NCBI RefSeq assembly: GCF_003334385.1
Contig: NZ_QOWN01000076.1
From: Escherichia coli
GTDB taxonomy: Bacteria > Pseudomonadota > Gammaproteobacteria > Enterobacterales > Enterobacteriaceae
Strand: one strand, 5' to 3'
Length of the DNA stretch: 6,564 bases
Of the stretch, positions 1 through 6,461 are shown one piece after another (position 1 is the first letter of the stretch; each line of letters starts with the position of its first letter). A program made the position numbers and the translations under genes. The notes below the pieces were generated by a model that saw only the letters and a list, made by a program, of their open reading frames with translations, made no database searches and was not told the DNA's origin.

Positions 1-242
1 AACGCGAGGCATCGTCTTAACGAGGCACCGAGGCGTCGCATTCTTCAGATGGTTCAACCCTTAAGTTAGCGCTTATGGGACACACAGATTCATTTTGTCT
101 TTCTTCAGCAGCAAAATACACTGCGGTTATTATTTAACCATTAAATCAACAAAAAATTTTACCTCATATTGATTTGACTGCTATTTTTGCTATTAATAGC
201 CAGAATTGCAGTGCTTTTATATCTGTGTATAGTGAGGTTACT

Positions 243-1727
243 ATGTCATTCGGTCAGCCTTGTGATGAGTTTCCCCTGAGTTCGCTGCCTCCACTCATTC
301 GTGATGCCGTTATTGAAGCTCAGCAAATTACGCAGGCTCCCCTTGGGCTTGTGGCAGCGTCTGCCCTGGGCGCTGTTTCACTTGTCTGCCAGAATCTGAT
401 TGATGTCTGCAGACTGAATACACTGCGGGGGCCGGTCTCTCTTTTTTTCCTGACGCTTGCCGAGTCCGGAGAACGAAAAACCGCAGTGGACAAATTATTA
501 ATGAAGCCCCTGTACCAGCAGGAGATGCAGTTATATTCCAGATACAAAAGTGAACTGGCTGTCTGGAAAAACAAGGAAGAGCTTTTAAAGGCTCAGAAAA
601 AAGCATTGTTGTCAAAACTGAATAAAGAACTCCGCAAAGGCGCGGATGAGTCAGAAACCCTCAGACAACTGGAAGTACTTCAGAAAAACAGTGCGGAAGA
701 ACCTGTGAGGTATAAATTCATTTTTAATGATGCCACGACTGCGGCAATTAAGAATCAGCTTTGTGGTAAATGGCGTTCAGTTGGTATTATGTCAGATGAA
801 GCCGGTATTATATTTGATGGATATACCCTGTCTGAGTTGCCTTTTATTAACAAAATGTGGGATGGCTCTGTATTGTCTGTGGACAGAAAGAATGAACCCG
901 AACAGATGATTGAAAATGCCAGAATGACGTTATCCCTCATGGTGCAACCCGGTCTTTTTGACCGATATATGGAGCGAAAAGGTTCTGTTGCCAGGGACAG
1001 TGGTTTTCTTGCCCGTTGTCTTATCAGTAAACCTGCAACCACGCAGGGGAAACGCTTTATTAACGGAGCTGTGATTCCGGGAGGATCATTAACGGCATTT
1101 CATGAACGATTAATGGAACTGGCCAGAGGCAGTATTGAAAAATCCAGTGAGGATGAACGGTATTGTCTGCATTTTTCGCCTGAAGCGCAAAAAATATTTA
1201 TTGAGCACTATAATGTTCTGGAGCAGGATTTATCCCCTTCCGGACCCTTAAGCCCGTTTCGGGGACATGTTTCAAAAAAAACAGAAAACATTGCAAGAAT
1301 TGCAGCGTTATTTCAGTATTTCAGCTATGGTGAAGGGAAAATCTCTGCCGATATCATGACGTCTGCTGTCGTAATAAGTTCGTGGTACACAGATGAATAT
1401 AAAAAATTATTTGCGTTACCTGATGAATCTGAACTGCAGCAGAAGGACGCCGAGGAGCTGTTCGACTGGCTCATTGAGGAGTGCCGCGGAGAATGCCCGC
1501 CCCGTGTCAGGAAAAATTATATTCTCCAGTGTGGCCCGGGCCGGTTCAGAAACAGGAAAAAACTGAACGCATTGCTGAACATTCTTGAATCTCAGTTCAG
1601 GCTTTCTGTCGTGCCGGAAGGAAAAACCATGTATGTTCTGCTTCCCCAGATAGCCAGTTTAAAGTTGTCTGATGTCTCTGGTATTTTTACCTCGGGTTAT
1701 CACTACAATAAGCTGAGAGCGAAGTAA
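243..1727 (+). CDS. DUF3987-domain protein, YfjI-like (family associated with replication/primase modules of integrative elements and satellites)
   Basis: Long ORF 174..1727 in the track. TTG at 174 has no Shine-Dalgarno; ATG at 243 is preceded by GAGG (234..237) with a 5-nt spacer, so 243 is the preferred start (494 aa). The N-terminus reads EFPLSSLPPLIRDAVIEAQQITQAPLGLVAASALGAVSL, which matches my recollection of the DUF3987 N-terminal signature (F-P-x-x-x-L-P-x-x-L-R-D ... Q-x-P ... small-residue helix). No overlapping ORF is comparably long. Family assignment is from memory, not a search. Confidence 0.7.
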   Translation: MSFGQPCDEFPLSSLPPLIRDAVIEAQQITQAPLGLVAASALGAVSLVCQNLIDVCRLNTLRGPVSLFFLTLAESGERKTAVDKLLMKPLYQQEMQLYSRYKSELAVWKNKEELLKAQKKALLSKLNKELRKGADESETLRQLEVLQKNSAEEPVRYKFIFNDATTAAIKNQLCGKWRSVGIMSDEAGIIFDGYTLSELPFINKMWDGSVLSVDRKNEPEQMIENARMTLSLMVQPGLFDRYMERKGSVARDSGFLARCLISKPATTQGKRFINGAVIPGGSLTAFHERLMELARGSIEKSSEDERYCLHFSPEAQKIFIEHYNVLEQDLSPSGPLSPFRGHVSKKTENIARIAALFQYFSYGEGKISADIMTSAVVISSWYTDEYKKLFALPDESELQQKDAEELFDWLIEECRGECPPRVRKNYILQCGPGRFRNRKKLNALLNILESQFRLSVVPEGKTMYVLLPQIASLKLSDVSGIFTSGYHYNKLRAK

Positions 1728-1786: not shown

Positions 1787-1826
1787 TTCATCACCGATAT
1801 TCAGATGTATGAATATCGGTGATGAA
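1787..1826. repeat. Perfect 17-bp inverted repeat (TTCATCACCGATATTCA / TGAATATCGGTGATGAA) with 6-nt spacer, in the convergent intergenic region
   Basis: Read directly: arms 1787..1803 and 1810..1826 are exact reverse complements, spacer GATGTA. It sits 60 nt after the stop of the 243..1727 gene. No T-run follows on either strand, so it is not a canonical intrinsic terminator. A third copy of the half-site GGTGATGAA occurs at 1850..1858. Confidence 0.85.
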
Positions 1827-2048
1827 CTAAAGCTCAGGAGCTGCATGGTGGTGATGAATCAACAGGCATATAACTGATACCCGCCGGTCAGAAGTTCCAG
1901 CCTGCGACTTTCCTGTCTGCGTGCCCGCAGTCCGGCGTTCAGGTGCAGCGTGTGACAGAACGCACGGAGAGCGAAACGGCAGGCAGACAGGCCGTTCAGT
2001 CAGCCCTGGCACCCTGCCCGGATACCAGCTTCCCTGAAACAACTGGCA

Positions 2049-2651
2049 TCAGGTGCGCTTATCGTCAACCGTTGTGCGGTATGACAGGAGCACGTACTGA
2101 TCCATCAGATCCGTCAGTGCTGCGCTCTGCTTCTGACGGTTGATGATCCATTCCTCCAGCTCTTTTTCTGATTTCCGTTTCAGATTCTCCGTCCAGTCGT
2201 CAAGGCAGTTTCCGGTCATTAAATCAAGCCAGCAAAGCCAGACTAGTTTGAGGCGCAACTCCGTGCCACCAAACTGACGGAAGAGGCTGATCAGTTTATT
2301 TGCCAGAGAACGCTGCCTCAGACGTTCACATTCAGACAGGAGAATGCCTTCCAGCATCGGATGATGAACCAGCAGATGTTCACTGGTGCATAAATTCACT
2401 ATCAGATCATCATCCAGGGGCGGTGTGGCCCGTTTGTCAGGGCCATAAATCAGCCGGTGCAGGCTCTGGGGTACGATGGCAATCTCCGGTTTTTCACCAT
2501 TGAATGACACCCAACCGGGCGTCAGATTATGGAAGTAGTAGATATTCGGATGACACACGCCCCAGGATACGGCGTGCCGGGTGAAGCCGGTCAGCCATTT
2601 CTGGTAGCTTTCGTGGAGCCATTCGTAGCGGGTCTGATACTGTTGTTTCAT
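2049..2651 (-). CDS. Hypothetical protein (about 200 aa), unrecognised family, co-directional and downstream of alpA
   Basis: ORF 2049..2666 on the minus strand. The annotated first codon is GTG; GAGG (complement of 2661..2664) lies 9 nt upstream of the ATG at 2651 and 3 nt upstream of the ATG at 2657, so I prefer 2651 (2657 possible). It starts 94 nt downstream of the alpA stop on the same strand, suggesting an operon. The protein has mixed composition with no low-complexity runs (e.g. GWVSFNGEKPEIAIVPQSLHRLIYGPDKR, LEEWIINRQKQSAALTDLMDQ). I do not recognise the family. Confidence 0.55.
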   Translation of the reverse strand: MKQQYQTRYEWLHESYQKWLTGFTRHAVSWGVCHPNIYYFHNLTPGWVSFNGEKPEIAIVPQSLHRLIYGPDKRATPPLDDDLIVNLCTSEHLLVHHPMLEGILLSECERLRQRSLANKLISLFRQFGGTELRLKLVWLCWLDLMTGNCLDDWTENLKRKSEKELEEWIINRQKQSAALTDLMDQYVLLSYRTTVDDKRT

Positions 2652-2745
2652 TTTCATATTCCTCACGGGGATATAACAGGCAGCAGAATGCCGCCGGCAG
2701 GCCGGAGATTACGTCTGCTGCGGGTGAACGGATAACGGTCAGAAA

Positions 2746-2952
2746 TTACGGACGGGACTGTGCAATACGCGCCTGCAGCCAGGCTTCCACTTCACTTTTC
2801 AGCCAGCGGGAGCTGCGCTCCATTTTGATGGGGGCAGGAAAGCCCCCATCTTTGATGAGTTTGTAAAACCACTTATCGGTTAAGCCGGTAAGTTGAGTGA
2901 TAAACGCCATGTCGACCATCTGGTCATCCATCAGCGAAACAGGGGTAGCCAT
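2746..2952 (-). CDS. alpA: AlpA-family (phage/integrative-element) transcriptional regulator / excisionase-like HTH protein, 68 aa
   Basis: The C-terminal 68 aa of ORF 2746..3186 read MATPVSLMDDQMVDMAFITQLTGLTDKWFYKLIKDGGFPAPIKMERSSRWLKSEVEAWLQARIAQSRP. The ATG at 2950..2952 (complement) is preceded by GGAGG (complement of about 2960..2964). The small size, helix-turn-helix-like core and the motif W-x-x-S-E-V-E-A-W-L resemble the E. coli AlpA C-terminus (W-I-E-A-E-I-D-E-W-L) as I recall it. The 78-codon upstream extension is Pro/Arg/Ser-rich and not protein-like. Confidence 0.75.
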   Translation of the reverse strand: MATPVSLMDDQMVDMAFITQLTGLTDKWFYKLIKDGGFPAPIKMERSSRWLKSEVEAWLQARIAQSRP

Positions 2953-3238
2953 GAGAATGTTCCTCCGGATGTTGTTAAACCAGCCGGTGTGGTCATGAAA
3001 ACAGCGCGCCACCTTCACTGGCATAACAACCGGGGAGAAACGTAAAAAATAATCGGGAATGTGGCTGTCCGGAGATAAACGGGGGGGATTGCGATGGCAG
3101 AGCCGTAGCGGAATCCCGGGTGGTTGTTGCGAAAAGATGCTTCCGCACGCACGCGCGATAAAGGAGGGAGGACTTTCGTGAGACAAGGGGAAAACTAGCG
3201 TTCTGATAATTGCAGAGTTGTTTTCGGAGGTGGTTACA

Positions 3239-3358
3239 GTGAGTCAGCCCGTTCCTGGCGAGGAGGAGACTGATATCACCGATGGGATAAGGCTGTCTGA
3301 TTGGTATTATAAATATAAGAAGTCATCAGAGAGTAACGTAAAGGATTTGCCAGAGTAA
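3239..3358 (+). CDS. Candidate small ORF (39 aa, MSQPVPGEEETDITDGIRLSDWYYKYKKSSESNVKDLPE), divergent from alpA; speculative
   Basis: GTG at 3239 with GGAGG (3226..3230) 8 nt upstream, in-frame stop TAA at 3356..3358. It is below the ORF-track size cutoff. No homology is recognised, and a short ORF next to a good SD can arise by chance. Confidence 0.2.
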   Translation: MSQPVPGEEETDITDGIRLSDWYYKYKKSSESNVKDLPE

Positions 3359-3399
3359 GCTAAGAGAGTAAATCTCTCCGGTAACAGAGCGCTGTGAAT

Positions 3400-3431
3400 C
3401 GTTCATGTATCAGAGTGCAAATACATGAACG
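3400..3431. repeat. 11-bp inverted repeat (CGTTCATGTAT / ATACATGAACG) with 10-nt spacer; candidate operator or RNA hairpin
   Basis: Read directly: 3400..3410 and 3421..3431 are exact reverse complements. There is no adjacent T-run on either strand. The arm sequence ATACATGAAC recurs at 4156..4165. Confidence 0.8.
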
Positions 3432-4155
3432 CTGATGCGTAAAATCAGCAGTGACACGCCAGCTCCCCCTGTGCCCATTCCTGTATAAGACATGAACTGA
3501 GCGTATTAATGCTCCTGCTCTGAGACTGAGCCGGTGAGTGAGGGGCTGAGAAATCCCTCTTGACACAGCTCTAAACCAGAAATACTTCCCCGGTTGTTGC
3601 GGTGCGTCCGGATCCCCGATAACGGAACACTAAGGCTGTATTGCGGGACACCGGGTAAGTGGCAGCCTGTAATGTGTTCTGTCAACGCCAGAAAAAATGA
3701 TTTTTCACACGCGTTATAGACTCACTCCTGTGGACCTGGAAGCCCGTAACTCTGCGGTTGCCCACCGACTGACGGAACTGACCGCAAACTTTACGATCGT
3801 GTTCCTGCTTCCTTCTGGTCACCTGAACTTTTAGCCAGCGCTACGATAAGTCCGGTGTTATCTGCACCGGAGGACCGGGAACATTAAGCGGTATAGCGAC
3901 AACAAAGAATTCGAAATCAAAAGGGAATGGTGCCGGAGGCGTGGGCGGTAATAGGCTGATTTTCAGGTATTACCGGCTTACAACGTGTGGTTGATATTGA
4001 GGGGCTGTGAGTTTCGCGTATTTGTCAGAAACCCAGATGAGTTTTCCTTTATGGGACGAAATAAGGCAGCGGCAATACCTGGAAAAATTTAATATGGTAT
4101 GAAGGAGAACCTGTCGGTTACGCTTAATATACACGGTACACTGTCAGCTCAGGGG

Positions 4156-4165
4156 ATACATGAAC
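4156..4165. repeat. Additional direct copy of the 10-mer ATACATGAAC (same as 3421..3430), just downstream of the zinc-ribbon gene stop
   Basis: Exact 10-mer match read from the sequence. A related 8-mer ACATGAAC is at 3490..3497. Chance recurrence of a given 10-mer in 6.5 kb is unlikely but not negligible. Confidence 0.5.
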
Positions 4166-4172
4166 CGTTATC

Positions 4173-4373
4173 TCACCAGCTACACAGTATACACACACTG
4201 ACGCTGACAGTAGTCAGCAGGACCACAATAATCAGCGCCAGCAGTATGGTAACGATACGGTCTGTATTCCGGTAGTAGCCGAAGGGGTCGACAGAACCAC
4301 AATACGGGCAACACACTGTATTATGAGTAATCGCGTTTCCACAGTCCCTGCACTTCTTTTTGCGTATCACCAT
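4173..4373 (-). CDS. Small zinc-ribbon protein with C-terminal transmembrane helix (66 aa)
   Basis: ORF 4173..4376 on the minus strand. The preferred start is the ATG at 4371..4373 (complement), with GAGGAGGGAG immediately upstream (AGGAGG about 5 nt before the ATG). The protein has two CxxC-type pairs (CRDCG ... CCPYCG) followed by a hydrophobic stretch IVTILLALIIVVLLTTVSVSVCILC. It is divergent from the YagK-like gene across a 200-bp AT-rich intergenic region. Confidence 0.5.
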   Translation of the reverse strand: MVIRKKKCRDCGNAITHNTVCCPYCGSVDPFGYYRNTDRIVTILLALIIVVLLTTVSVSVCILCSW

Positions 4374-4545
4374 CACTCCCTCCTCACAGCCTTACCCGTA
4401 ACCGATTTTTTACATTAAAAAAACAACGCTGAAAATTCAACCGTCAGTCCGGAGACGACCGTTCGGGTTATCACAGAGTGCCTGAGACAGTGTCCTGCCG
4501 GAGGTCACCTCAGGGGCTCTGCGCATTTTTTACGACGTGGTTATT

Positions 4546-4562
4546 CCGTATGAACCATACGG
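4546..4562. promoter_or_regulatory. 17-bp perfect palindrome CCGTATGAACCATACGG overlapping the Shine-Dalgarno of the YagK/YfjJ-like gene
   Basis: Read directly: 4546..4552 (CCGTATG) and 4556..4562 (CATACGG) are reverse complements with a 3-nt centre. The right arm overlaps GGAG (4561..4564), which is the SD for the ATG at 4573. It could be a dimeric-regulator site or an RNA hairpin occluding the RBS. Confidence 0.4.
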
Positions 4563-4572
4563 AGATTTAACC

Positions 4573-5142
4573 ATGACCTACAAATACAACCCCTTCTGGC
4601 AGCAACGTATTCGTGAGACGGTGCGGCACGCACTGAATGTTCATCCCCGCCTGACGGCATTGCGGGTTGACCTGCGTCTCCCGGATGTACCGGCAGCAAC
4701 GGACGCAGCTGTGATATCCCGCTTCATCAATGCCCTGAAAGCCCGAATCGACGCTTACCAGAAACGTAAGCATCGGGAAGGTAAACGCGTGCATCCCACA
4801 ACCCTGCATTACGTCTGGGCCCGGGAGTTTGGGGAGTGCAAAGGTAAAAAACACTATCACCTGATGCTGCTGGTCAACCGGGATACCTGGTGTCGTGCCG
4901 GTGATTACCGCGCTCCGGAGTCTCTGGCCGGGATGATTAAACAGGCGTGGTGCAGTGCCCTGGGAGTGGATGTCGGGTGCCATGCCACGCTGGTGCATTT
5001 TCCGGCCTGGCCGGCGGTGTGGCTGGCGCGTAATGATGACACCGGCTTTCAGCAAGTGCTGGAACGTGCTGACTATCTGGCGAAGGAGCATACCAAAGCT
5101 CACTGCACCGGTGAGCGCAATTTTGGCTGTAGCCGGAGTTGA
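4573..5142 (+). CDS. YagK/YfjJ-family (inovirus Gp2-like) protein with HUH-like and YxxK-like motifs, 189 aa
   Basis: ORF 4537..5142 begins with GTG; the ATG at 4573 has GGAG (4561..4564) 8 nt upstream, so 4573 is preferred. The N-terminus YKYNPFWQQRIRETVRHALNVHPRLTALRVDLRLP matches my recollection of the YagK/YfjJ family. HYH followed by LMLLVN (HYH at 4852..4860) is an HUH-type motif, and YLAK lies near the C-terminus. The long antisense ORF 4567..5436 is rejected as GC-driven. Confidence 0.7.
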   Translation: MTYKYNPFWQQRIRETVRHALNVHPRLTALRVDLRLPDVPAATDAAVISRFINALKARIDAYQKRKHREGKRVHPTTLHYVWAREFGECKGKKHYHLMLLVNRDTWCRAGDYRAPESLAGMIKQAWCSALGVDVGCHATLVHFPAWPAVWLARNDDTGFQQVLERADYLAKEHTKAHCTGERNFGCSRS

Positions 5143-5219
5143 GCACGACTGGCGCGCCAATATCCGGCAAACCAAAAGTATGGGTTGTTGTCTGGCGGCA
5201 ACGATGTATCCACTCGCCC

Positions 5220-5243
5220 ACTGACTGTTTTTTACGTCAGTGT
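5220..5243 (+). other. Possible hairpin (CACTGAC / GTCAGTG, 7-bp stem, 10-nt T-rich loop) in the intergenic region after the YagK-like gene
   Basis: Read directly. The T-run is inside the loop rather than after the stem, so terminator function is uncertain. Confidence 0.25.
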
Positions 5244-5395
5244 TCCATTGTGTGACAACCACAGTGCTGTAACAGCAACCAGCCTGCTTTACCCAAACTC
5301 CAGTCCAGATTTTAACTGAACCGCCATTCACACCCTGACCACGCTGCCCGTACCGGGACGGCTGTTGCCTGCGTGTCGTCTGGCGGCTGAGGTAT

Positions 5396-5803
5396 ATGAC
5401 TATGTACGCAAAATCCTTTATCGCTCTTGATGGCAACGGACGTCTGACGGGCGCCCGTACTGCACAGGCCGCACCTTATGCTAACTACACCTGCCACTTG
5501 TGTGGCAGTGCACTCAGATACCATCCGCAATACGAAACTGAACTTCCCTGGTTTGAACACACTGACGACAGGCTGACAGAGCACGGTCAACAGTGCCCTT
5601 ATGTCAGGCCGGAGCGCAGAGAAATACAGTTGATTAAACGTCTGCAGCAATTCGTACCGGATGCCTTACCCGTGGTGCGTAAAGCCAGCTGGCACTGCAG
5701 ACAATGTCACCACGATTATTATGGGGAGCAGTACTGCACACACTGCCAGACCGGAGGATTCAGTATTCCCCGGACAACTCAGGAGGAAATATGCGAATTC
5801 TGA
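5396..5803 (+). CDS. Cys-rich putative zinc-binding protein, paralog A (135 aa), unrecognised family
   Basis: ORF 5396..5803. GAGG (5389..5392) precedes the ATG at 5396 by 3 nt and the ATG at 5402 by 9 nt, so the start is one of the two. It contains CHLCG ... PWFEH ... W-H-C-R-Q-C-H-H-D-Y-Y-G-E-Q-Y-C-T-H-C-Q-T-G, and aligns along its length with the downstream protein. Confidence 0.6.
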   Translation: MTMYAKSFIALDGNGRLTGARTAQAAPYANYTCHLCGSALRYHPQYETELPWFEHTDDRLTEHGQQCPYVRPERREIQLIKRLQQFVPDALPVVRKASWHCRQCHHDYYGEQYCTHCQTGGFSIPRTTQEEICEF

Positions 5804-6225
5804 ACTGTTATATGGCGAATGACAGCAAAGGCCATTTTGTTACGGCGAAAGAAGCTGCGAAGCACAACCGACAGGACGTTTTGTGCTGTGTGTCCTGTGG
5901 ATGCCCGTTAACACTTCAGCGGGGCAATGACGGACAACCACCGTGGTTTGAACATGACCAGATGACTGTCGCTGAAAAAATCCTGCTGCGATGTACCTGG
6001 CTTGACCCGGCAGAGAAAGAGGCCCGTCGTTTGCATCTGCAGGGCATGACGGTTCCGGATTATACGGTGAAGGTGAGAAAGTGGTTTTGTGTGATGTGTG
6101 ACGAAGATTATGAGGGGGAAAAGTGCTGCCCACGCTGCGGTACCGGGGTATACAGCAGGGCGTGGGGGCGGCAGGAGGTGCCGTCGGAAGATGCCAGGGC
6201 TGATAATCCGTTACAGAGGCTGTAA
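5791..6225 (+). CDS. Cys-rich putative zinc-binding protein, paralog B (144 aa), translationally coupled to paralog A
   Basis: The ATG at 5791 has a strong AGGAGG (5781..5786) 4 nt upstream and overlaps the last 13 nt of paralog A (stop 5801..5803). The ORF-track start at 5704 is an unsupported extension. It contains CCVSCGC ... PPWFEH ... W-F-C-V-M-C-D-E-D-Y-E-G-E-K-C-C-P-R-C-G-T-G. Confidence 0.6.
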   Translation: MRILNCYMANDSKGHFVTAKEAAKHNRQDVLCCVSCGCPLTLQRGNDGQPPWFEHDQMTVAEKILLRCTWLDPAEKEARRLHLQGMTVPDYTVKVRKWFCVMCDEDYEGEKCCPRCGTGVYSRAWGRQEVPSEDARADNPLQRL

Positions 6226-6461
6226 TGGTTGCCTCCGGAGCAGTTTGCGGTGATGCCTTTCCCGGGAATGGATTGCCGGTGCGGGGACTGTGGAGCTTAA
6301 TTCCGGTGTTGGTGGCCTTTCCGTTGATTTTATGCCAACAGCCCCCTGTGACTGACAGGCTGCCTCGTCATTCCATTCGTATCTCCAGTAACAGGGGGTT
6401 GTATTGTATTTTATTGTGCCGGTTCAGGTGTGCGTTTCCCGGCGCGTCTGCACCGGCTTAA
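6225..6461 (+). CDS. Possible small protein (78 aa) whose ATG overlaps the paralog B stop (TAATG); low confidence
   Basis: ATG at 6225..6227 overlaps TAA at 6223..6225, with GAGG (6216..6219) 5 nt upstream. The protein is Pro/Gly/Leu/Arg-rich with one hydrophobic stretch (LWSLIPVLVAFPLIL) and could equally be a GC-driven artefact. Confidence 0.2.
   Translation: MVASGAVCGDAFPGNGLPVRGLWSLIPVLVAFPLILCQQPPVTDRLPRHSIRISSNRGLYCILLCRFRCAFPGASAPA

Follow-up and report, generated by a model that had tools for sequence, protein, structure and literature searches.

As read from sequence comparison, the 45-codon reading frame ORF2 is a pseudogene fragment derived from a Hha/YmoA gene of the hha3 type carried on a genomic island. 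It lies in the window, which is here the whole 6,564-nucleotide stretch of Escherichia coli DNA that was analysed (Table 1). The other short reading frame of the same spacer, the 39-codon ORF1, most likely spans a conserved non-coding segment by chance and is not translated into a functional protein. The explanation as a whole, in which ORF2 is a decayed hha3 remnant and ORF1 a chance frame over conserved, putatively cis-regulatory DNA of the hha side, is in our judgment probable.

Table 1. Features of the window and of the spacer between alpA and the small zinc-ribbon/membrane protein gene.
Feature	Position	Strand	Description
YfjI-family gene	174..1727	+	
Hypothetical gene	2049..2666	-	
alpA	2746..2952	-	HTH regulator of the AlpA family; neighbouring gene, divergent from ORF1
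Spacer	2953..4172		About 1.2 kb, without annotated long ORFs
Upstream stretch conserved with alpA	2953..3080		At least 90% conserved
Block 1	3199..3219	n/a	Invariant, non-coding, CGTTCTGATAATTGCAGAGTT; at least 98% at nearly every position among 84 unique alleles
GGAGG	3226..3230	+	SD-like; 8 nt 5′ of the ORF1 GTG
ORF1	3239..3358	+	39 codons, GTG 3239-3241 to TAA 3356-3358; probably a fortuitous frame across conserved non-coding DNA
Block 2 (core)	3274..3318	n/a	Invariant, ITDGIRLSDWYYKY; under ORF1 codons 13-26
Extended -10-like site	3302-3310	+	TGGTATTAT; inside block 2, just before the point where spacer types diverge
TATAAT	3310-3305	-	Inside block 2
Type-A spacer block	3319..3653	n/a	Low diversity, several hairpins, no recognisable gene or RNA family
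hha remnant	3685..3830	+	From an island-borne Hha/YmoA gene, hha3 allele; homology to codons ~25-74 of intact hha
ORF2	3697..3834	+	45 codons, ATG start, no purine-rich SD upstream
Net 4-bp deletion	3782..3785	+	ACAATGAAC to ACCGC; shifts the hha frame; common to L003 and L007
7-bp deletion	3817..3818	+	GAAATAT; near the hha 3′ end
Small zinc-ribbon/membrane protein	4173..4376	-	
Inovirus Gp2-family gene	4573..5142	+	
Two zinc-ribbon proteins			Beyond the Gp2-family gene; end of the window's gene order

Genomic context and annotation

The window belongs to an E. coli genomic island of the CP4-44/leuX type. Of 5,426 complete genomes of the species, 3,709 match its portion from 2700 to 4450, some in as many as seven copies; a tRNA/tmRNA scan gave no match. 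ORF1 and alpA are divergent and separated by an intergenic gap of 286 nt. The promoter and leader of alpA probably lie within the conserved stretch immediately upstream of the gene, which is the sole upstream DNA that alpA keeps in the island variant L144, where homology stops at 3080. A long conserved region upstream of an AlpA-family gene is likewise found in AlpA-controlled islands and Gram-negative PICIs, where AlpA positively autoregulates from such a region (PMC11773190). The window differs from these elements in that no PICI packaging or helper module is seen in it, and in that the conserved blocks under ORF1 do not travel together with alpA.

Neither ORF is statistically unusual, and shuffled sequence yields such ORFs. 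ORFs of 39 aa or more number 10 in the spacer (2953-4172), where 300 dinucleotide shuffles gave 8.6 ± 2.1, and a GGAGG with a start and at least 30 codons arises in 17% of dinucleotide shuffles. Searches of the other ORFs in this ORF-poor spacer against NCBIfam and PHROGs gave no match except the annotated zinc-ribbon protein.

Both ORFs had been described as unannotated in an earlier note on this DNA. This does not hold in RefSeq, where ORF2 is the hypothetical protein WP_001418354.1 in genomes with identical sequence, and where longer versions of ORF1 are present in some genomes as the hypothetical proteins WP_000840364.1 (88 aa) and WP_001224230.1; it does hold for ORF1 in window-identical copies, which PGAP leaves uncalled. 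The two longer proteins have their C-terminal 46 residues in common with ORF1 and need an upstream extension of the frame, which indels of 1 and 2 nt interrupt in the window as well as in many further copies. PGAP calls ORF1 only where this extension is open (88 or 77 aa), and in some genomes the longer calls are labelled "frameshifted". In the ORF listing for the window, the same frame is 46 aa long if begun at TTG 3218.

ORF2 is a remnant of an island-borne hha gene

At the position syntenic to ORF2, PGAP annotates a Hha/YmoA-family gene of 58 aa in the locus L001 and of 74 aa, named Hha, in the locus L004. In a local DNA alignment, window positions 3685-3830 align to positions 2666-2823 of L004, which carries the intact 74-aa hha at the same island position. 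The ancestral hha stop codon, a TGA, is retained at 3824-3826, and the ATG of ORF2 corresponds to an internal GTG codon of intact hha. The first ~24 hha codons and the native upstream DNA are missing from all type-A spacers, the type to which the window belongs, and the two deletions listed in Table 1 lie in the part that remains. Of the 45 ORF2 codons, about 29 read in the Hha frame (residues ~28-56) and the last 16 out of frame, and there is no intact frame of about 67-74 codons spanning all four Hha helices. With K-12 Hha as the tblastn query, the ORF2 frame gives residues 21-59, and residues 55-68 ("KLYDRVPASFW") fall in a different one. Since only Hha residues ~28-56 and 16 unrelated residues would be left in the ORF2 product, the locus is a pseudogene. 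The coordinates, the length of 45 aa, the quoted sequence and the ATG without a clear SD given for ORF2 in the earlier note are all confirmed, and its guess that ORF2 may be a gene fragment proved right: the fragment is a 5′-replaced, frameshifted Hha/YmoA remnant of the hha3 type.

Profile and structure comparisons agree with the DNA alignment. The Hha/YmoA family is represented by the models Pfam PF05321 and NCBIfam NF008191, the curated cut-off of the latter being 90 bits. The 58-aa relative matches the Pfam HHA model with E 1.6e-17 and the NCBIfam Hha model with E 2.5e-18 (66.1 bits); ORF2 reaches 18.9 bits (E 0.0014) against the NCBIfam model, below the cut-off. The intact island protein aligns to Hha structures (1JW2, 4ICG) over residues 14-71, and the one match of ORF2 to solved structures is a weak one to YmoA residues 25-53. 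Compared with chromosomal Hha (b0460; PDB 1JW2 and 2MW2; Salmonella Hha-H-NS complex 4ICG) and YmoA (2K5S), intact island copies are ~57% identical over Hha residues 14-71. The window's copy, unlike chromosomal Hha, is truncated and frameshifted, and the chromosomal Hha motif RLAELTMNKLYD is recognisable in the window, split over two frames.

The surroundings of the island gene also differ from those of its relatives. The DNA upstream of island hha is unrelated to that upstream of chromosomal or plasmid hha, and no tomB-like gene precedes it, as one does on the chromosome. A tblastn search with K-12 TomB against eight island spacers gave only chance-level matches (E ≥1.9), and the idea that the spacer is a decayed tomB-like gene, modelled on the chromosomal tomB-hha operon, was rejected on this result. 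A possible Hha N-terminus at window 3570-3614 (E 1.8) was likewise rejected, the DNA alignment there being an 8-nt match only. The nearest full-length relatives outside Escherichia islands are the hha genes of IncI plasmids of Salmonella and E. coli (P0069, P0083), with 68-71% identity. Their surroundings are plasmid backbone (exclusion protein, hok, DotM-like), where both alpA and the island spacer are missing entirely. An alpA-hha arrangement in Salmonella, sought through the nearest Hha relatives, was thereby rejected, these being IncI plasmid genes with unrelated flanks.

The island hha is often decayed. Among 114 copies with enough flanking sequence, about 30 are seemingly intact and full-length, 36 are full-length with stops, 22 are 5′-truncated but otherwise open, and 5 are, like the window, both truncated and frameshifted. 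Identity to the window over 3660-3860 is 99% or more in at least 69 complete genomes, and E. coli 2014C-4135, B7A and RM12761 are among the strains that carry the identical sequence.

Relationship to hha3 of strain 042

The island-borne paralogues hha2 and hha3 have been described in E. coli 042, with links to flu-yeeR islands and to regulation that depends on H-NS/Hha (Prieto et al. 2016, PMC4864382; Bernabeu et al. 2019, PMC6480617). For Hha2 and Hha3 of this strain, modulation of silencing was reported only at the level of ag43 expression, and hha3 expression is significantly below that of hha and hha2 (PMC4864382). Both published hha3 primers lie inside the 58-aa CDS WP_001344112.1 (EC042_4796) of strain 042, in the leuX-island locus, and they match L001 and L006 exactly.

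The hha3 locus of enteroaggregative E. coli 042 is 97.0% identical to window positions 2033-6460 and has the same gene order: zinc-ribbon pair, Gp2-family gene, small protein, hha, spacer with the ORF1 stretch, and alpA. The 5′ end of its hha is likewise replaced in the type-A manner, and its island runs on into a GTPase-Ag43-YeeU/CbtA module. Because the primers lie inside the 042 CDS, and the loci agree in order and at 97.0% identity, ORF2 is the allelic counterpart of hha3, further degraded. The hha allele of the window is more diverged, with 5-8 mismatches to each published primer, and its extra 4-bp and 7-bp deletions leave the 45-aa ORF2 only and no 58-aa ORF.

The decay of the gene involved three events. 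Replacement of the first ~24 hha codons and the native upstream DNA by the type-A spacer came first and gave the 58-aa form, as in strain 042; the 4-bp and 7-bp deletions in the window's allele then disrupted the hha frame. The internal GTG codon has become the ATG of ORF2. The low expression of hha3 may follow from the loss of its native 5′ region. The locus tags adjoining hha3 are not listed in the strain 042 transcriptome table.

The variable part of ORF1 carries no coding signature

The ORF1 stretch is present at 6,648 sites across 3,510 E. coli genomes and in 9 records of the plasmid collection, several of them chromosome-sized, and has no match in the phage collection. An exact 25-mer scan for its 25-nt core found it absent from 100,044 species-representative genomes, and patterns back-translated from the ORF1 peptide found no relative in the same 100,044 species genomes. 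Protein searches returned sporadic calls from Escherichia only, 39-110 aa long and with N-termini that vary by call; many of these are fused to IS ends, and IS insertions repeatedly disrupt ORF1. A profile search of 1.84 billion representative proteins recovered the same small ORFs alone. ORF1 has no family in NCBIfam, PADLOC or PHROGs (best PHROGs E 0.044, function unknown), and these collections place it in no DNA-binding domain or regulator family; a search of the full-text literature found no mention of the peptide or the core DNA.

The coding tests drew on ~130 copies, of which the ~120 added from metagenomes were picked by an exact core 24-mer, so that conservation of 3294-3317 is present in this set by construction. 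Across the core, the ORF1 frame is open in nearly all of these copies and in both spacer types. The rest of the frame is less stable. Among 128 copies with flanks, an in-frame GTG or ATG is kept in 85, and the start position reads GTA in 26 (20%), where an in-frame GTG exists one codon upstream; that codon, or an alternative TTG (3210), could replace the lost start. In a further 17 of the 128 (13%), a 1-nt deletion ends the canonical frame after 16 codons. The diverged copies obtained by BLAST, whose sampling was unbiased, also show these changes: in L140 and L143 the start position reads GTA, in L141 an in-frame stop interrupts the core, and L139 has a 4-nt insertion that gives a third C-terminal tail, so that three mutually unrelated tails occur among ORF1 copies. 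Indels in ORF1 are 1, 2 or 4 nt long and never 3, with differences of -1 and -2 nt within 3218-3293.

Substitution patterns were compared with those of alpA. Heterozygosity at codon positions 1/2/3 is 0.16/0.15/0.22 in the variable part of ORF1 and 0.09/0.08/0.18 in alpA. Pairwise pN/pS for the variable, N-terminal part of ORF1 is 0.58 in its own frame vs 0.63 in another frame, and for alpA, the control, it is 0.15 in the correct frame and >1.7 in wrong frames. Within the core, substitutions in the ORF1 frame comprise three synonymous (ACC/ACT, AGG/AGA, CTG/TTG) and one non-synonymous (GAT/GGT/GTT), too few to decide.

The sequence facts stated for ORF1 in the earlier note, namely its coordinates, its 39 aa and a GTG with GGAGG 8 nt upstream, divergent from alpA, are correct. 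The suggestion built on them, that ORF1 could be a small repressor divergent from alpA, is not supported, given the lack of a family signal and of relatives outside Escherichia, loss of the frame in part of the copies, the position of the SD and start in the least conserved part of the spacer, and the lack of a sign of purifying selection on the variable part. As to conservation of the frame in homologous islands, the 14-codon core is conserved, and the start, N-terminal part and tail are not.

Two invariant DNA blocks lie under and beside ORF1

Among 84 unique alleles, two blocks of the spacer are invariant (Table 1), and the SD and start of ORF1 sit between them in the most variable stretch of the spacer. 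The GGAGG itself is limited to the type-A lineage, with GAAGG or GGGGCGG in other alleles. Block 1 (3199-3219) was not fixed by the search pattern and is also kept in the unbiased diverged copies. Block 2 is the AT-richest part of the spacer (GC 27.5% at 3300-3339), and spacer types A and B are alignable up to exactly 3318 and not after. Since both blocks are missing from L144, where alpA has a different neighbour, they belong to the hha-side module.

These blocks may be cis-regulatory, as a candidate promoter/operator or as an AT-rich nucleation site for H-NS/Hha. In the former case they would serve as a putative promoter/operator for rightward transcription toward hha through the extended -10-like TGGTATTAT; in the latter they could nucleate H-NS/Hha through their AT-rich DNA. 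Neither the -10-like site nor the TATAAT on the minus strand is beyond chance. A two-hexamer promoter scan found no site at the core, and consensus scans for promoters and terminators, covering the window spacer and one type-B locus, gave nothing beyond chance near the ORFs.

The type-A spacer block

The block that follows the divergence point contains a hairpin with perfect 11-bp arms (3400-3410/3421-3431) and several smaller hairpins. Positions 3318-3600 fold more stably than shuffles on both strands, with z -2.74 on the plus strand and -3.43 on the minus strand. Diversity is low in the type-A block (π 0.005-0.056 vs 0.09-0.19 in alpA). Type-B spacers show ordinary diversity over this stretch and are mostly unalignable with type A. 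Selective constraint was rejected as the main explanation of the low type-A diversity, given the ordinary diversity of type B, and the pattern points to a young, recombining haplotype. A scan of the whole window with Rfam 15 covariance models gave no match even at E ≤1.

Alternative readings

An alternative to a chance frame is that ORF1 encodes a real, Escherichia-restricted micropeptide of ~37-48 aa, divergent from alpA, in which the invariant core is functional and the ends are free to vary. The near-universal open frame of the core in both spacer types and the mostly synonymous core substitutions (3 vs 1, small numbers) keep this reading alive. The GGAGG of type A would moreover be a strong SD at ideal spacing, other types having weaker purine runs, and the ORF is annotated by some callers, including PGAP in some genomes. 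Against it stand the GTA starts and frameshifts (20% and 13% of copies), the in-frame core stop of L141, indels that are not multiples of three, the three unrelated kinds of tail, an N-terminal pN/pS no better than that of another frame, repeated breakage by IS insertions, the lack of a homologue in the other species or families searched, and the expectation of such ORFs by chance. We therefore regard the micropeptide as unlikely, with a real but minor chance of being correct. A related proposal is that the 45-nt core (3274-3318) is functional in itself, either as an Escherichia-only micropeptide or as an operator/promoter where activation by AlpA and silencing by H-NS/Hha control the island Hha paralogue; to this, too, we would give a small chance. 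In place of ORF1, the functional element could be a structured non-coding RNA at ~3318-3660, an sRNA or a long regulatory 5′ leader of hha3 begun at the extended -10-like site, ORF1 being irrelevant. Folding of the plus strand beyond shuffles, the perfect hairpin with its smaller companions, the very low type-A diversity and an hha3 mRNA that is detectable, though low, in strain 042 (PMC4864382) are consistent with such an RNA. However, the minus strand folds better still, as expected from inverted repeats at the DNA level; neither an Rfam match nor, in the consensus scan, a terminator-like site was found; the unalignable type-B stretch with its ordinary diversity makes the low type-A diversity look like that of a young haplotype; and the occurrence of the element in one genus only precludes a covariation test. 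On balance such an RNA seems improbable.

For ORF2, the alternative to a pseudogene is that the truncated Hha-like peptide is functional, for instance as a dominant-negative H-NS partner. The region of the best-conserved Hha motif does stay in frame (HRLTELT vs HRLAELT), the exact allele is present in at least 69 complete genomes, and a PGAP annotation exists. However, the peptide would be without helix 1, part of helix 2 and the whole C-terminal helix; the final 16 residues come from another frame, it has no SD, and its Hha score of 18.9 bits compares with a cut-off of 90. The locus shows many different decay states, and even the 58-aa hha3 is poorly expressed (PMC4864382). A functional ORF2 is on these grounds very improbable indeed, and ORF2 is taken here as a pseudogene.

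Implications

As a pseudogene of an already described island gene, ORF2 is an ordinary finding, and its main value lies in annotation: WP_001418354.1 is better read as an hha3 pseudogene than as a "hypothetical protein", and ORF1 with its longer PGAP versions probably represents spurious calls. The published hha3 of strain 042 is itself the 58-aa form, from which ~25 residues at the N-terminus and the native upstream DNA are missing. As the hha locus is found in many decay states across E. coli, the presence of hha2 or hha3 by PCR does not prove that the gene works. The control region of the island hha gene may lie in the two invariant non-coding blocks.

Invariant blocks of the alpA–hha spacer

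Position-wise conservation across 84 unique alleles revealed two non-coding blocks without variation, at 3199-3219 and 3274-3318 (positions 3294-3317 are fixed by the search pattern in the metagenome allele sample), and the 50 nt separating them are freely variable. Both blocks are absent from L144, an island variant in which alpA has a different neighbour. The 9-mer ATCACCGAT at 3275-3283, in the conserved core under ORF1, occurs identically in both arms of an inverted repeat next to the YfjI-family gene (see the table below). As a sequence match, this could reflect a protein-binding site common to the repeat and the core, or it could be a coincidence.

Features of the window and of E. coli 042
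Feature	Position	Strand	Description
Inverted repeat	window 1787-1826		perfect; 17-bp arms, 6-nt loop; immediately 3' of YfjI-family gene
Hypothetical protein WP_001297219.1	window 4173-4376	-	67 aa; CxxC...CxxC zinc ribbon, then hydrophobic helix
Two neighbouring zinc-ribbon proteins	window 5396-5803 and 5791-6225	+	overlapping
hha3 (published), EC042_4796, WP_001344112.1	L146 13133-13309 = NC_017626.1 5138133-5138309		58 aa; E. coli 042

Spacer diversity and insertions

In the type-A spacer, to which the window belongs, diversity of the non-coding block 3214-3653 is 3-10 times below that of the neighbouring alpA coding sequence, whereas no such contrast between spacer and alpA was found in type B. 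Because of this difference, the low type-A diversity suggests a haplotype of recent spread together with mosaic recombination among island copies.

In the type-B spacer, directly after the core, a comparison of L005 (~2090-2130) with L004, the locus with an intact hha, revealed a 15-nt tandem duplication, two copies of GAGATCAAACACATG; type-B copies differ here, some having the unit twice and others once. Farther along the spacer, L004 carries an additional insert of ~190 nt.

The spacer forms an insertion hot spot for IS elements (window 3190-3360; loci of the database proteins P0001, P0004, P0018, P0023, P0171, and P0172), and fusions of ORF1 to IS ends account for many of the database “proteins.” In strain GE3 (L002), the window sequence recurs with one addition, an IS3 element that has inserted close to the hha remnant.

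Zinc-ribbon proteins

The single zinc-ribbon protein on the minus strand matches PHROG families of unknown function (best match, 2.5e-5). The overlapping pair share repeats around a “PWFEH” motif (5541-5559 and 5936-5954) and, judged from their sequences, look like paralogues.

Relatives of the island hha

Hha residues 1 through about 25 are missing from the hha3 protein of E. coli 042, whose own residues 1-16 are unrelated to Hha. Expression of hha3 in that strain is much below that of hha and hha2 (PMC4864382). Outside Escherichia, the full-length proteins most closely related to the island Hha are encoded on IncI-type plasmid backbones (Salmonella contigs L131-L138), where their genes are flanked by an exclusion gene and by hok or MqsA-like genes. 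Since the nearest such relatives reside on these backbones, there is a hint that the island hha is plasmid-derived.
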